Below are positions 52,186 to 56,561 of a stretch of 57,661 bases of DNA, one piece after another. Within the stretch, counting starts at the first letter, position 1, and every line of letters starts with the position of its first letter. The notes below the pieces were generated by a model. The model saw only the letters and a program-made list of their open reading frames with translations, ran no database searches and was not told where the DNA came from. This stretch comes from Actinomycetota bacterium (GTDB lineage Bacteria; Actinomycetota; Actinomycetes; S36-B12), in the NCBI GenBank assembly GCA_027729805.1, contig JAQCEO010000004.1, positions 1 to 57,661 of the forward strand, written 5' to 3'. Position numbers and translations under genes: made by a program.

Positions 52186-52562
52186 CTAGAACAGTGTCAA
52201 ATAATTCTCGATCTCCCAGTCGCTAACTTTGGCATGGTAGGCCCGGAACTCAGCTTCCTTGATCTTAATGAAGTAGTCCACATAGTCACTCCCATCACGG
52301 CCCGGGCCGAAGGCCGCGCGCAGGACCTGATCCTTAGCAAGTTCATCGGTAGCATGTAGCAGGGTAGGTGGCATAGTCTCAATATTGGCGGCCCGGATTT
52401 GGTCGGGGGTCAGGGTGTAGAGGTTGTCGGTGTTTGGTTCGCCCGGGTCGAGGGAACGGTCGATCCCATCAAGACCTGATGCCAGTAGGGCCGTAAGTGC
52501 GAGGTAGGGGTTAGCCGCACCATCGCAGGCCCGATGCTCAACCCGCCCACCTTCGGGGACGC
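52186..52562 (-). pseudogene. 3' fragment of a glutamine synthetase-like ligase (GlnT/GmaS type)
   Basis: VPEGGRVEHRACDGAANPYLALTALLASGLDGI...PPTLLHA..EL...YHAKVSDWEIENYL; upstream catalytic domain absent. Confidence 0.8.
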
Positions 52563-52774
52563 TCAGCAAATTGTGTTCGGTGGACTTAGCCGATAGAACA
52601 ACGCCGAATGCTTCTGCCTTTCGGACAGCAATTGCCGCAGTGACCACCGACATTATCCGTGATGACGAAGCGGGAACACGTTCTTATCTCCTGCACTGCG
52701 AAAGATCTTCAGGGTCCTATTTATTTGATGCTTTGCTTGATGCTGGCCGGGAGTTCGGCTGCCAGCCGCAATAG
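52562..52774 (+). pseudogene. 3' fragment of a sarcosine oxidase gamma / GcvT-like protein
   Basis: LSKLCSVDLA...AFRTAIA..TTDIIRDD...SYLLHCERSSGSYLFDALLDAGREFG; no N-terminus or SD. Confidence 0.65.
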
Positions 52775-52957
52775 TGGCTGGTTCATTTTTGGGTTTTAGG
52801 GTCTTTTGCAGTAAGTCCACCCCATCAGCAGGCGTAGGCGGCAAACTCGCCCCAGGCCACTCTCTGCTGCCACCGAAAGCCAGAATTTCCCAGGGGAAGT
52901 GCCGATCCGGTGGTGGGGGGGTTGTCACTTTGGCTGGACCTTGCTACAGTCCATCTA

Positions 52958-53060
52958 GGTCAAGAGTGCCAGCGTTAAGTCCCGGCTAGCTGGTCGACAA
53001 CCCTCCAACCGCGGTGGGGTGCCCCGGAGAAGACCAGGCCCTTTTGGGCAAGCGCGGGTC
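52958..53060 (+). ncRNA. SAM-IV riboswitch
   Basis: GGTCAAGAGTGCCAGCGTTAAGTCCCGGCTAGCTGGTCGACAACCCTCCAACCGCGGTGGGGTGCCCCGG..GACCAGG..GCAAGCGCGG matches the SAM-IV consensus; upstream of metY-metX; TACAGT -10 at 52945-52950. Confidence 0.92.
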
Positions 53061-53102
53061 TTGCAGCAGGCAAGGCCCCACGAGTGTGATTGAGGTCCCC
53101 TG

Positions 53103-53132
53103 ATGTGTTGTTGTCGAATGACCAGCCGCTGA
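53103..53132 (+). CDS. candidate tri-cysteine leader peptide MCCCRMTSR
   Basis: ATG TGT TGT TGT CGA ATG ACC AGC CGC TGA, with GAGGT at 53092-53096 six nt upstream. Confidence 0.4.
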   Translation: MCCCRMTSR

Positions 53133-53247
53133 GTCCTGCGCCATCTGGCGCCGTCTTGGCAATCCTGAAGCAGTACCCGCCGAGCGCGGTCACTAATCAT
53201 GTTCGCATACCAAAAATCAAATATCAGTCAACTTTGAGAGGAATCCC

Positions 53248-54564
<1,317 letters not shown>

Positions 54565-54568
54565 TTTT

Positions 54569-55777
54569 GTGAATTTACCAACAGCGTACGGCCCGCTTTC
54601 GTACGAGGGTCTGATTCCAGCCAGCGCCGCCTGGCGGGAATCAGACCCTGTTGGTGATCGTTTGTTCTGTGATATCGGTGAGTTCACGACCCAGTCCGGT
54701 TTTAGCTTTCCCCAGGTTCGGGTGGCATATGAGACTTGGGGACAACTTAATTCGTCCGGGTCAAATGCGATCTACATCTGCCATGCCCTAACGGGTGATT
54801 CCCACGTCACGGGGCCGGCCGGCCCGGGCCACCTGACCGCCGGCTGGTGGGCTTCCCTTGTCGGACCAGGCCGTGCCTTTGACACCGATGAGTGGTTTGT
54901 GGTCTGCGCAAATGTGTTGGGCGGCTGCCAAGGCACCACCGGGCCGGCGGCCACGGCGCCCGATGGCCGGCCGTGGGGCAGTCGCTTCCCGGTGCTAACT
55001 GTCGGCGACATGGTGGAAGTCGAGTTGCGGTTAACCGATGCCCTCGGCATTGAGTCCTGGGCGTTGATACTCGGGCCGTCCTTGGGCGGGATGCGGGTTT
55101 TGGAGTGGCTGGTAGCGCACCCCACCCGAGTGCGCAGTGGCCTAGTGTTCGGCACCACCGCAGCAGTCTCGGCAGATCAAATAGCGACGCACTTCACGCA
55201 ATTGGCGGCGATATATGCCGATCCGGCGTTCAACGGAGGCGACTATTACGACGCCCCGGCGGGACGGGGCCCACATGTTGGCATGGGTATTGCCCGTGCT
55301 ATCGCGCATCTAACATATCGCAGTCCCGCCGAGCTCGACGAAAGATTTGGCCGACAAATCCAAGGGGCTGATCCGCATGACATTACTGGGCAAAGCGTTG
55401 GGCAGCCTCTGGCACCGTATGCAATAACTTCTTATCTTGATCACCATGCTGAAAAACTGGCTCGACGTTTTGATGCCAACACCTACATCACCTTGACTAA
55501 CGCCATGAGCTTATTTGATGTAGGGCGAGGCCGAGGTGGGGTTGAAGAAGCGATTAGTCAAATCGCGGCACCGTTGACCGTGGTGGCCATCGACTCGGAC
55601 CGGCTCTTCCCCAATCACCAGCAGCAACAATTGGTGGATCTAGCCCCCGGGGCCGACAAGTTGCAAACGGTGCACTCCCTGCACGGGCACGACGGGTTCC
55701 TGATCGAAGACGAGCAGGTCGCATATTTCATCGAACAAGCGGTCCAGCGTGCGCGTTCGGAATCAAGTAGGGAATGA
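54569..55777 (+). CDS. metX: homoserine O-acetyltransferase
   Basis: CHALTGDSH, NVLGGCQGTTGP, nucleophile GPSLGGM, RFDANTY, DSDRLF, HGHDGFL. Confidence 0.93.
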   Translation: MNLPTAYGPLSYEGLIPASAAWRESDPVGDRLFCDIGEFTTQSGFSFPQVRVAYETWGQLNSSGSNAIYICHALTGDSHVTGPAGPGHLTAGWWASLVGPGRAFDTDEWFVVCANVLGGCQGTTGPAATAPDGRPWGSRFPVLTVGDMVEVELRLTDALGIESWALILGPSLGGMRVLEWLVAHPTRVRSGLVFGTTAAVSADQIATHFTQLAAIYADPAFNGGDYYDAPAGRGPHVGMGIARAIAHLTYRSPAELDERFGRQIQGADPHDITGQSVGQPLAPYAITSYLDHHAEKLARRFDANTYITLTNAMSLFDVGRGRGGVEEAISQIAAPLTVVAIDSDRLFPNHQQQQLVDLAPGADKLQTVHSLHGHDGFLIEDEQVAYFIEQAVQRARSESSRE

Positions 55778-55784
55778 TGGAGGG

Positions 55785-56561
55785 GTGGGCCTACTTGATG
55801 GTTACGACCTGTCGGTTAACCTTTCGAGTGAGGTGGGGGCCCGCCGGCTAGCGGCAGCGCAGCGCCGGTTGCTTTATTTACGACTGGTTGACGGCGGTAT
55901 TTTTGACGGCTCGGGCATCCTGGGCCCACCCCTGTGCGTGGTATTTGAGGGCTGGGATGCCTCTGGTAAGGGCGGGGCTATCACCCGCCTGGTAGCACCG
56001 ATTGATCCAAGGCATGTCCGGGTAATCTCAATCGCCGCCCCCACCTTCGACGAGAAGCGGCACCACTTCCTGTCCCGTTTTTGGCCGCATCTACCCGGCT
56101 GGGGCGGCATGACCATTTTGGACCGCAGTTGGTATGGCCGGGTGCTTGTTGAGCGGGTTGAGGGGTTTGCTACGGAAGAGCAGTGGCGCCGGGCCTACGA
56201 CGAGATCAAAGGTTTCGAGCGGACATTGACCGACGAAGGCATGGTCTTGGTAAAGATCTGGATGCACATTTCAAGCGATGAGCAACTGAAGCGGTTTAAG
56301 TCGCGGGGAAAGGACCCACTCAAGCGCTGGAAACTCACCCCAGATGACTGGCGCAACCGCGAGCAGCGACCCGCCTACGAACTGGCCGTGACCGAGATGT
56401 TGGAACGCACGGACGCCTCCAATGCCCCGTGGACCGTGGTGGAGGCCGATAACAAAATCTATGCCCGGGTCAAGGTGTTGGAGACGGTGAATGCAGCCCT
56501 AGAGCGCGGACTTGTGGAGGCTGGAATCGCCATCACGGAGTCGGACGAAAAACTGGAATAG
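55785..56561 (+). CDS. ppk2: polyphosphate kinase 2 family protein
   Basis: EGWDASGKGGAI, HFLSRF, DRSWYGRVLVERVEG, KIWMHIS, RWKLTPDD; GTG 55785 after SD GGAGGG. Confidence 0.92.
   Translation: MGLLDGYDLSVNLSSEVGARRLAAAQRRLLYLRLVDGGIFDGSGILGPPLCVVFEGWDASGKGGAITRLVAPIDPRHVRVISIAAPTFDEKRHHFLSRFWPHLPGWGGMTILDRSWYGRVLVERVEGFATEEQWRRAYDEIKGFERTLTDEGMVLVKIWMHISSDEQLKRFKSRGKDPLKRWKLTPDDWRNREQRPAYELAVTEMLERTDASNAPWTVVEADNKIYARVKVLETVNAALERGLVEAGIAITESDEKLE

Follow-up and report, generated by a model that had tools for sequence, protein, structure and literature searches.

A cysteine-codon leader open reading frame behind the SAM-IV riboswitch of an actinobacterial metY-metX locus, and its possible role in sensing SAM, methionine and cysteine

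Riboswitches are usually drawn as acting directly on the Shine-Dalgarno (SD) sequence or the terminator of the gene that they control. The leader of the metY-metX genes on contig C7 of an actinobacterial metagenome-assembled genome (2.03 Mb, 96% complete) raises the question of what a SAM-IV riboswitch controls when 187 nt lie between its aptamer and the metY ATG (53248), and when this interval holds an SD-led upstream open reading frame (uORF) of nine codons, three of them consecutive cysteine codons. The stretch of contig C7 that was analyzed, 57,661 nucleotides in length, is termed the window throughout. An earlier note on this DNA had pointed out the SAM-IV element, the 187-nt spacing, the SD, the uORF MCCCRMTSR and the order metY-metX, all of which are present in the sequence, and had proposed that the riboswitch and the cysteine-codon uORF act in series. 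We favor, with moderate confidence, the reading that this is a composite leader in which the SAM-IV riboswitch would regulate the leader peptide instead of the gene, and in which one mRNA leader would integrate S-adenosylmethionine (SAM) with the supply of methionine and cysteine.

The comparisons that bear on this reading were made at three levels. SAM-IV loci were gathered from 61 genomes of the window's order and from 301 genomes of the class, and the DNA downstream of the SAM-IV element was inspected at 131 loci from these two samples. The order-level leader set comprises 41 SAM-IV/metY leaders, plus 7 metK leaders, and the comparison within the window's genus covers 11 species. The expression records for the lineage consist of DNA metagenomes and of three metatranscriptomes with contigs of relatives.

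The SAM-IV aptamer and its leader open reading frame

The aptamer matches the RF00634 model over its full length with 95.3 bits, against a gathering score of 38 (E = 5.4e-17). It is the single SAM-IV element in the 2.03-Mb genome, and an Rfam search of the leader returned no family besides SAM-IV. Both the covariance model and the gene context, i.e. metY-metX downstream in the window and likewise methionine and SAM genes in relatives, identify it as a probable SAM sensor. The genus shares an aptamer variant, CGACAAC versus CGGCAAC, which produces an A.C mismatch at the base of P3 (marked 'v' by cmscan). The promoter-like site in front of the aptamer (Table 1) is the sole match in 52650-53300, where 0.3 would be expected in shuffles. 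The transcript start predicted from it, about 6-8 nt further downstream, would be the first base of the aptamer, and a metatranscriptome contig of a relative starts at ~52971-52976. A 1005-nt metatranscriptome contig of a relative, from a sample that may contain DNA, spans 52976-53972 and joins aptamer, uORF and metY, suggesting that the leader and metY lie on one transcript.

The uORF begins ~145 nt past the predicted transcript start, behind the aptamer, and its start and stop lie 145 nt and 115 nt, respectively, before metY. Of the order-level SAM-IV/metY leaders, 28 have a spacer of 124 nt or more, and every one of these contains an SD-led ORF that starts 33-43 nt past the aptamer; 2-4 cysteine codons are present in 27 of the 28 ORFs. 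The 13 leaders that measure 113 nt or less do not have the uORF, nor do the 7 metK leaders of the set; one of the 13 (G022, 108 nt) has a short SD-led ORF, MHGHRP, with neither cysteine codons nor CGA-AUG. The peptides predicted in relatives (MCCCRMTSR, MRCCCRMKRG, MCCCCRMTRR, MSCCRMTRR, MCCCRRRMPSR, MLCCRMCHPTGV, MRCCPLTRSH, MKICCCTRTVS and MCCCCSC) differ in length by whole codons only, as in the series MCCCRM, MRCCCRM, MCCCCRM, MSCCRM and MCCCRRRM. The residues flanking the cysteine run vary, and TGC substitutes for TGT at the first cysteine positions. Among the 11 species of the genus, positions 53090-53117 are almost invariant and 53106-53117 fully so, against ~65% identity in the remainder of the leader; the metatranscriptome contigs of a ~88%-identical relative carry substitutions on either side of this segment but none in 53088-53130.

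The composition of the uORFs points in the same direction. Cysteine accounts for 21-28% of their codons versus 0.85% in the long ORFs of the genome, and the preferred codon is TGT, with a TGT:TGC ratio of 30:4 in unselected uORFs as against 4:15 in the adjacent metY (p = 1.6e-6) and a TGT share of 28% genome-wide. Similarly, CGA provides 15 of the 35 arginine codons of the uORFs, compared with 73/879 (8%; p = 1e-7). The 18-mer ATGTGTTGTTGTCGAATG, which runs from the first ATG through the second, is found a single time in the window, where 0.05 occurrences are expected even with 3 mismatches, and no other poly-Cys leader ORF in the genome stands out besides that of metY. Short ORFs are certainly common in long leaders, and this one also contains a GTG mini-ORF and a 48-codon ORF in the -1 frame, but the comparative conservation statistics contradict a chance origin of the uORF, the probability of which we regard as negligible. 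The doubt voiced in the earlier note, namely that the TGT run could be chance, is likewise removed by the recurrence of the uORF across several families and its enrichment in cysteine and TGT. The note had suggested looking for conserved cysteine codons with TGT/TGC synonymy in actinomycete SAM-IV metY leaders, and these are found; the series of riboswitch and cysteine-codon uORF before metY-metX is conserved as one unit. Judged by these patterns of conservation, the uORF is a selected coding unit, and the conserved frame, SD and codons lend indirect support to its translation.

A selected coding unit might also encode a functional small Cys-rich peptide (e.g. metal-binding or redox-active) that is merely co-regulated with metY. 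The conserved N-terminus M-C-C-C-R-M would be in line with such a function, but the product has only 6-13 residues, its C-terminal half is variable and the number of cysteines ranges from 0 to 4 among lineages. Moreover, the rare codons are conserved at their third positions, a constraint that is superfluous for a peptide function, and the uORF is always situated inside a riboswitch leader. We accordingly hold a peptide function to be very unlikely.

Both of the other short frames in the leader appear to be fortuitous. The GTG mini-ORF MIEVP (53086-53103), for which the earlier note had proposed coupling to the uORF by TGATG, exists in the window, but the other genus members and the metatranscriptome contigs of the relative read TGG in place of the GTG start, and it is a chance ORF. 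The 48-codon ORF in the -1 frame runs from a GTG (AUGUG) at 53105 to a TGA at 53251 and overlaps the metY AUG as AUGA, an arrangement that could be taken for translational coupling. An uninterrupted frame as far as the metY start is seen in ~11 of 55 leaders, and the leader of the window is the only one from the genus among them; the overlap is probably a coincidence. A further set of candidates comes from Alphaproteobacteria, where matches to GAGGTC..ATG..TGYTGYCGAATG (MRCCRMSRG and similar; L053, L061, L062, L078, L085, L095, L121, L122 and others) were recovered. Their location is a conserved coding region for an acyl-CoA (glutaryl-CoA) dehydrogenase-like protein, in which they are out of frame, and they are therefore false positives of a pattern-based census.

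Across families, it is the rare codon pair CGA-AUG, and not the cysteine run, that is conserved most widely in the uORF. CGAATG is found at +45 to +58 past the aptamer in 26 of 111 unselected SAM-IV loci, and in all 26 it stands in frame in an SD-led ORF of 6-13 codons. The gene that follows these 26 uORFs is metY, except for a class-V aminotransferase-like gene in one Streptomyces-like leader. CGA-AUG uORFs with one or no cysteine codon occur in four further families, Streptomyces-like leaders included; examples from elsewhere are MSCQRMPRR (family f17), MTCRMPF (f53), MNHHRMRR (f47) and MFPTSRMR. In the Streptomyces-like genus (L172, L227-L237) all 12 leaders have the form GTG AGC AAG CGA ATG CGN TAG (MSKRMR, MNQRMR, MSQRMR), in which the last arginine codon varies synonymously (CGA/CGC/CGT), whereas the CGA before ATG never changes. 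In these leaders a GC hairpin with a U/C-rich tail begins at the stop codon, and the next gene is class-V aminotransferase-like, not metY. The Mycobacterium-like genus (L176, L184, L238-L246) presents a mixture of SAM-IV/metY leaders: four have the expression platform directly on metY, and the others contain tiny ORFs (MCMCR, MCMCP, MRKCR) or 16-codon ORFs ending in ...VCRC or ...VCRR. As CGA-AUG is distributed more broadly than the cysteine run, the latter is an elaboration, typical of the window's order, on a wider SAM-IV-linked leader ORF.

The expression platform and the SD of the uORF

The sequence GAGGTC, which serves as the SD of the uORF in the window, is present at the same place in nearly all uORF-bearing leaders. 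It is preceded by the stem P6, the 3' part of which contains an anti-SD sequence (GGCCCC in the window, GACCCC in most relatives) that can pair with it. Both helices are supported by covariation. P6 is paired in 95% of cells from 36 distinct leaders, with changes on both sides in 20 cells; none of 500 shuffles matches this pairing, and slid controls reach 31-60%. Its variants include GGGCCUCGC/GUGAGGCCC, GGGACCG/CGGUCCC, GGACCCCU/AGGGGUCC and GGGUCGUGC/GCACGGCCC. The anti-SD:SD helix is 90% paired versus 28-50% in slid controls, and 3 of its pairs are changed on both sides (e.g. GAGCUCC with GGAGUUC, and GGCCC with GGGCC or GGGCU). Covariation and folding models together suggest that P6 keeps the anti-SD off the SD, i.e. 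that it functions as an anti-anti-SD:anti-SD helix.

The connection to ligand binding is likely to be provided by the pseudoknot PK-2, which, in the cryo-EM structure of SAM-IV, is formed between the P3 loop and the 3' tail that follows P5 (PMC6890682). In the window the corresponding complementarity, CCGCG/CGCGG, is read from sequence alone, and the last two G of the tail (53056-53057) are common to PK-2 and P6. Constrained folding in which the PK-2 tail is removed from P6 predicts a less accessible SD for 35 of 36 leaders (mean accessibility 0.61 with the tail in P6, 0.43 without).

The same arrangement of P6, anti-SD and SD is found directly before metY or metK in relatives that lack the uORF, which indicates that the uORF occupies the usual place of the regulated gene. 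These comparisons give reasonable support to the view that a standard SAM-IV expression platform is here aimed at the SD of a nine-codon uORF and not at that of the gene. The earlier note had overlooked this action of the riboswitch's own platform on the uORF SD, as well as CGA-AUG as the widest core. Since SAM represses met genes, masking of the SD is expected in the SAM-bound state; and as metY is also to be repressed, translation of the uORF must favor metY expression.

From the uORF to metY

The stop codon of the uORF forms part of the basal stem of a two-tier hairpin (Table 1). In the genus alignment the six pairs of this basal stem hold in 65 of 66 cells (11 species); one pair is C-G in 6 species and G-C in 5, and the G.U pair at the stop codon becomes A-U in species with a UAA stop. 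The inner hairpin had been described in the earlier note as GCGCCA-TC-TGGCGC. A hairpin is indeed present, but the 2-nt loop is sterically impossible, and we read it as GCGCC-AUCU-GGCGC (53138-53151), with 5 bp and a 4-nt loop. Stop-codon stems of up to 13 bp are also predicted in many other lineages.

These elements can be combined into a mechanism with two states. With SAM bound, PK-2 would take the tail, P6 would weaken, and the anti-SD would mask the uORF SD and keep ribosomes out; the stop-codon hairpin would fold, and transcription would stop before metY-metX, most likely by Rho acting on the C-rich spacer. At low SAM, ribosomes would enter the uORF, where their dwell time on the slow sequence UGU-UGU-UGU-CGA-AUG would be set by the charging of tRNA-Cys and tRNA-Met. 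With CGA held in its P site, a ribosome would reach the 5' strand of the stop-codon stem and keep the stem open, leading to read-through into metY-metX. Sensing of Cys-tRNA by the uORF, as the earlier note had also supposed, is a step that we infer; a sensing role of the cysteine and CGA-AUG codons and an output through Rho are both plausible.

Ribosome geometry fits a pause at CGA-AUG during which the stem is kept open. When CGA occupies the P site, the ribosome covers a further ~12-15 nt, and the stop-codon stem begins at +13 in the window; in the Streptomyces-like leaders the hairpin begins with the stop codon, at a distance of 11 nt from the C of CGA, which corresponds to the front of a ribosome in this position. 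Stalling on the first cysteine codons, in contrast, would leave the ribosome short of the stem and block further initiation, and could thereby lower expression. The sign of the cysteine effect is for this reason not readable from the sequence.

The geometry also bears on a reading in which the riboswitch gates a translated uORF that metY needs, but the cysteine codons are not a cysteine sensor. The UGU run, being U/G-rich, weakly structured and slowly decoded, would instead open the initiation region or time the ribosome, and only SAM, perhaps together with methionine via CGA-AUG, would be sensed. Apart from the shortfall of a ribosome stalled on the first cysteine codons, this reading can draw on the far wider distribution of CGA-AUG compared to the cysteine run, with no cysteine in MNHHRMRR, MFPTSRMR and MSKRMR and a single one in MTCRMPF and MSCQRM, and on a bias that favors TGT specifically and not cysteine codons generally. 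It does not readily account for the 2-4 cysteine codons that are kept in many lineages while the flanking residues vary, for the use of TGC in place of TGT at the first positions, or for the uORFs without CGAATG that still keep CC or CCC (MRCCPLTRSH, MKICCCTRTVS, MCCCCSC, MLCCSS). The Mycobacterium-like leaders with MCMCR, MRKCR and ...VCRC are similarly difficult to explain by timing, for which other A/U-rich codons would do, and leader ORFs with cysteine codons are an established type of sensor. On balance, we consider this reading rather unlikely, though deserving of serious attention.

With regard to the output of the composite leader, no intrinsic (U-tract) terminator is present in 53061-53247, where the tails of the hairpins are CGUCUUGG and UCACUAAU, and no clear 2:3 antiterminator was found in the leader. 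In 54 of 55 leaders C outnumbers G in the spacer downstream of the uORF (mean contents 0.40 and 0.25, respectively). For the segment 53133-53236, which covers the two-tier hairpin as well, the skew of +0.19 ranks at the 91st percentile when compared with 484 upstream regions from this genome. Sequestration of the metY ribosome-binding site (RBS) was considered as an alternative output but is not favored, since its modelled accessibility is ~0.5 whatever the position of the ribosome (0.47 in free RNA, 0.50 when a ribosome is stalled and 0.47 when one stands at the stop; 0.55 in all three for the window). Nor is there support for a pairing proposed in the earlier note between GAGTCCT (53131-53137), at the uORF stop, and AGGAATC (53240-53246), in the metY SD region. 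Six of the seven pairs can form, but a functional output is not borne out: the GAGTCCT site is TGACCAATTCG or TGACCAGTTCG in 6 of the 11 genus members with the metY SD unchanged, and the modelled accessibility of the metY RBS is independent of the pairing. The C-rich, G-poor composition, the lack of a terminator and mycobacterial precedents together point to Rho as the output, and by analogy with the latter it is most likely through Rho that the position of the ribosome reaches metY.

Several observations weigh against the composite leader as set out here. The compared sequences are phylogenetically related, so the counts overstate their independence. PK-2 and P6 have only two bases in common, and the modelled effect of PK-2 on SD accessibility in the window itself is small (0.48 to 0.45). 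CTG, ATT or ATC replaces the ATG after CGA in 3 of the 11 genus members, which weakens a strict methionine-sensing role in the window's genus. Neither the stop-codon stem nor the hairpins exceed shuffled GC-rich sequence in stability, the z-score for the duplex of the window being +1.2, and the accessibility of the metY RBS barely shifts with ribosome position, which leaves base composition and analogy as the grounds for the output step. Finally, UGUUGUCGA is complementary to a strand of aptamer P3 (UCGACAAC), and part of the nucleotide conservation could therefore be at the RNA level.

Taken to its full extent, this last point would mean that the conserved block is an RNA element, in which GUUGUCGA would pair with the 5' strand of P3 (UCGACAAC/CGGCAAC) as an anti-aptamer strand and the open frame would be a by-product. 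In the window the complement is a perfect 8 nt (53110-53117 with 52994-53001), made so by the genus-specific CGACAAC variant of the P3 strand; in G023, GUUGCCG perfectly matches CGGCAAC, and TGTTGTCGAATG is conserved as nucleotides, third codon positions included. Yet the P3 strand is invariant, while its supposed partner has been lost in families that keep the uORF (CACCACCGAAUG, CUGUCAGCGAAUG, AGCAAGCGAAUG). In every case the uORF retains its start codon, SD spacing, frame and stop, its length changes by whole codons, the last arginine codon varies synonymously, and the SD itself is the target of a covarying anti-SD helix. An RNA element with an incidental frame is in our estimate distinctly improbable, and a translated uORF under riboswitch control remains the preferred reading.

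This reading can be extended, tentatively, beyond the window's order. SAM-IV riboswitches of Actinomycetes may commonly drive a dedicated ribosome-borne sensor module instead of genes, i.e. an ORF of 6-13 codons in which the CGA-AUG core would report methionine, the UGU run would add cysteine in the window's order, and the pause would keep the stop-codon stem open and block Rho or hairpin termination. CGA in the P site, read by inosine wobble, would slow the acceptance of Met-tRNA, and a single methionine codon might then suffice to report methionine charging. Three sulfur signals would be read in one leader, SAM by the RNA and methionine and cysteine by the ribosome. We view this generalization as possible, if less than probable.

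Table 1. Features of the metY-metX leader and the two genes that follow it, in window coordinates
Feature	Position	Strand	Evidence
Promoter-like site, TTGTCA, 17 nt spacer, TG-TACAGT	52922..52950	+	Sequence match
SAM-IV riboswitch aptamer	52958..53060	+	RF00634, 95.3 bits, model 1-116, full length
PK-2 strand, 3' tail CGCGG	53053..53057	+	Complementary to P3 loop CCGCG (53009-53013)
Stem P6, GGGUCUUGC (53056-64), loop AGCAG, GCAAGGCCC (53070-78)	53056..53078	+	Covariation
Anti-SD GGCCCC, 3' part of P6, can pair with uORF SD	53074..53079	+	Covariation
uORF SD GAGGUC, 5 nt before AUG	53092..53097	+	Invariant in genus
uORF MCCCRMTSR, ATG TGT TGT TGT CGA ATG ACC AGC CGC TGA (TGT x3, 53106-53114; rare Arg codon CGA, 53115-53117; ATG, 53118-53120; stop TGA, 53130-53132)	53103..53132	+	In-frame conservation across families
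Two-tier hairpin: basal GCUGAG (53128-33, with stop codon)/CUUGGC (53155-60); inner GCGCC (53138-42)/GGCGC (53147-51)	53128..53160	+	Genus alignment
Untranslated spacer, C > G, poorly conserved, candidate Rho loading region	53161..53235	+	Base composition
Second small hairpin CCGC-N5-GCGG	53177..53189	+	Sequence-divergent hairpins at same place in genus (CCGCC/GGTGG, CCCGC/GCGGG)
metY SD GAGAGGAA and ATG (53248)	53236..53250	+	Conserved in genus
metY, O-acetylhomoserine/O-acetylserine sulfhydrylase	53248..54564	+	NF005872, 802.5 bits vs cut-off 703
metX, homoserine O-acetyltransferase	54533..55777	+	NF047917, 480.7 bits, match from residue 41

In the ORF list, metX and metY share 32 nt (54533-54564); given this overlap and a family match that begins only at residue 41, the true start of metX is probably further downstream. 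A PPK2-family ORF (55749-56561) in turn overlaps the end of metX by 29 nt (55749-55777), and its start is also probably further downstream. On the other side of the leader, a 155-aa ORF on the reverse strand (52186-52653) lies just before the metY promoter; its match to glutamine synthetase (GS) is confined to the C-terminal ~120 residues (TIGR03105 positions 318-434 of 435), and it could be a truncated or frameshifted GS-like gene. Between this fragment and the metY promoter lies a terminator-like hairpin with a T-run (GCCAGCCGCAATAGTGGCTGGT TCATTTTTGG) at 52761-52792 on the forward strand.

Relation to known leaders and to sulfur physiology

The leader of Salmonella mgtA combines a Mg2+ riboswitch, the proline-codon uORF mgtL and Rho termination. 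It resembles the metY leader in joining a ligand-sensing RNA to uORF codons that report an amino acid, with premature termination as the output; the two differ in sequence, ligand, amino acid and phylum, and mgtL lies inside the sensing structure, whereas the uORF here stands behind the aptamer and its initiation would be the output of the riboswitch. A review (PMC12360218) also mentions mgtL. Also close are the SAM-IV riboswitches that precede methionine and SAM genes of Actinobacteria (RF00634; PMC6890682). The window shares with them the full-length, high-scoring aptamer and the platform that relatives use directly on metY or metK, but here and in many relatives the SD predicted to be masked is that of a nine-codon leader ORF, 145 nt before metY.

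Riboswitch-controlled uORFs with Rho-dependent termination have been described in Mycobacterium tuberculosis for the pe20 Mbox with rv1805A (PMC12810186) and are reported for a B12 riboswitch with a uORF before ppe2 (PMC11260477). These systems resemble the metY leader in that an SD/anti-SD/anti-anti-SD platform governs a small conserved uORF, the downstream genes follow, and a long untranslated spacer fits Rho. They differ from the metY leader, in which the ligand is SAM, the uORF is much shorter, the conserved content consists of codons (the UGU run and CGA-AUG) and not of a peptide, and Rho is proposed from composition and precedent.

The cysteine codons themselves have parallels in the polycysteine attenuators of mycobacteria, which are leaderless short ORFs without a riboswitch before cys genes (Canestrari et al. 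2020, bioRxiv 10.1101/834739), and in the cysteine leader peptides of Actinobacteria, for which Rho was proposed earlier (Seliverstov et al. 2005, PMC1262725). Common to these and the window are consecutive cysteine codons in a tiny ORF before sulfur genes, the lack of an intrinsic terminator, and a suspected Rho or translational attenuation. The known examples start at the 5' end of the transcript, whereas the uORF described here is SD-led, stands behind an aptamer and before metY-metX, and has its cysteine run fused to CGA-AUG. Of the hallmarks of polycysteine attenuators, it displays at least two consecutive conserved cysteine codons (three here, 2-4 in relatives) but not the leaderless start; for another, the opening of an inhibitory fold over the downstream RBS by ribosomes stalled at cysteine codons, the modelled metY accessibility goes from 0.47 in free RNA to 0.50 with the ribosome stalled. 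The mycobacterial attenuators cited in the earlier note are an analogy but not the same family, being leaderless and without a riboswitch. Classical attenuators (trpL, hisL, pheL) and the uORFC-8-2 motif, a cysteine-codon uORF before cysS in Rhodobacterales (PMC8632094), likewise combine hairpins with a short leader ORF whose regulatory codons stand in a run. The window has such a run (UGU x3 followed by CGA-AUG) but lacks both the U-tract terminator and a clear 2:3 antiterminator, and ribosome entry would here be gated by a ligand. The individual parts are each known, and the combination of SAM-IV with a Cys-codon/CGA-AUG uORF appears to be new: full-text literature searches on SAM-IV with uORF, leader peptide or metY returned no description of it, in accord with the earlier note, whose author knew of none.

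The gene complement of the 96%-complete genome (G000) bears on why cysteine might be sensed at metY. It has no recognizable CysE (best match 21 bits), but it does encode a 459-aa CBS-like protein, a 346-aa CysK/M-like protein and one member of the PAPS-reductase family; the coordinates listed alongside are C19:7435-8331, C12:3031-3897 and C76:3889-4572. Cysteine in this organism may accordingly be derived from homocysteine or from O-phosphoserine, and we infer that homocysteine produced by MetY may feed both methionine and cysteine. If homocysteine indeed feeds cysteine, then a cysteine input at metY would be reasonable.

A whole clade of SAM-IV switches appears to pass its decision to a tiny leader ORF. 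If this is true, the leader would be a natural multi-input RNA gate at the point where sulfide enters homocysteine, with uORF codons that look designed for reading the charging of sulfur amino acids. It would also account for the 'empty' leaders of unusual length that follow many SAM-IV aptamers, extend the link between riboswitch, uORF and Rho beyond M. tuberculosis, and offer a compact, testable case for codon-pair-based sensing of methionine. Such uORFs are never called in annotation, and they are relevant to the sulfur physiology of abundant freshwater actinobacteria.

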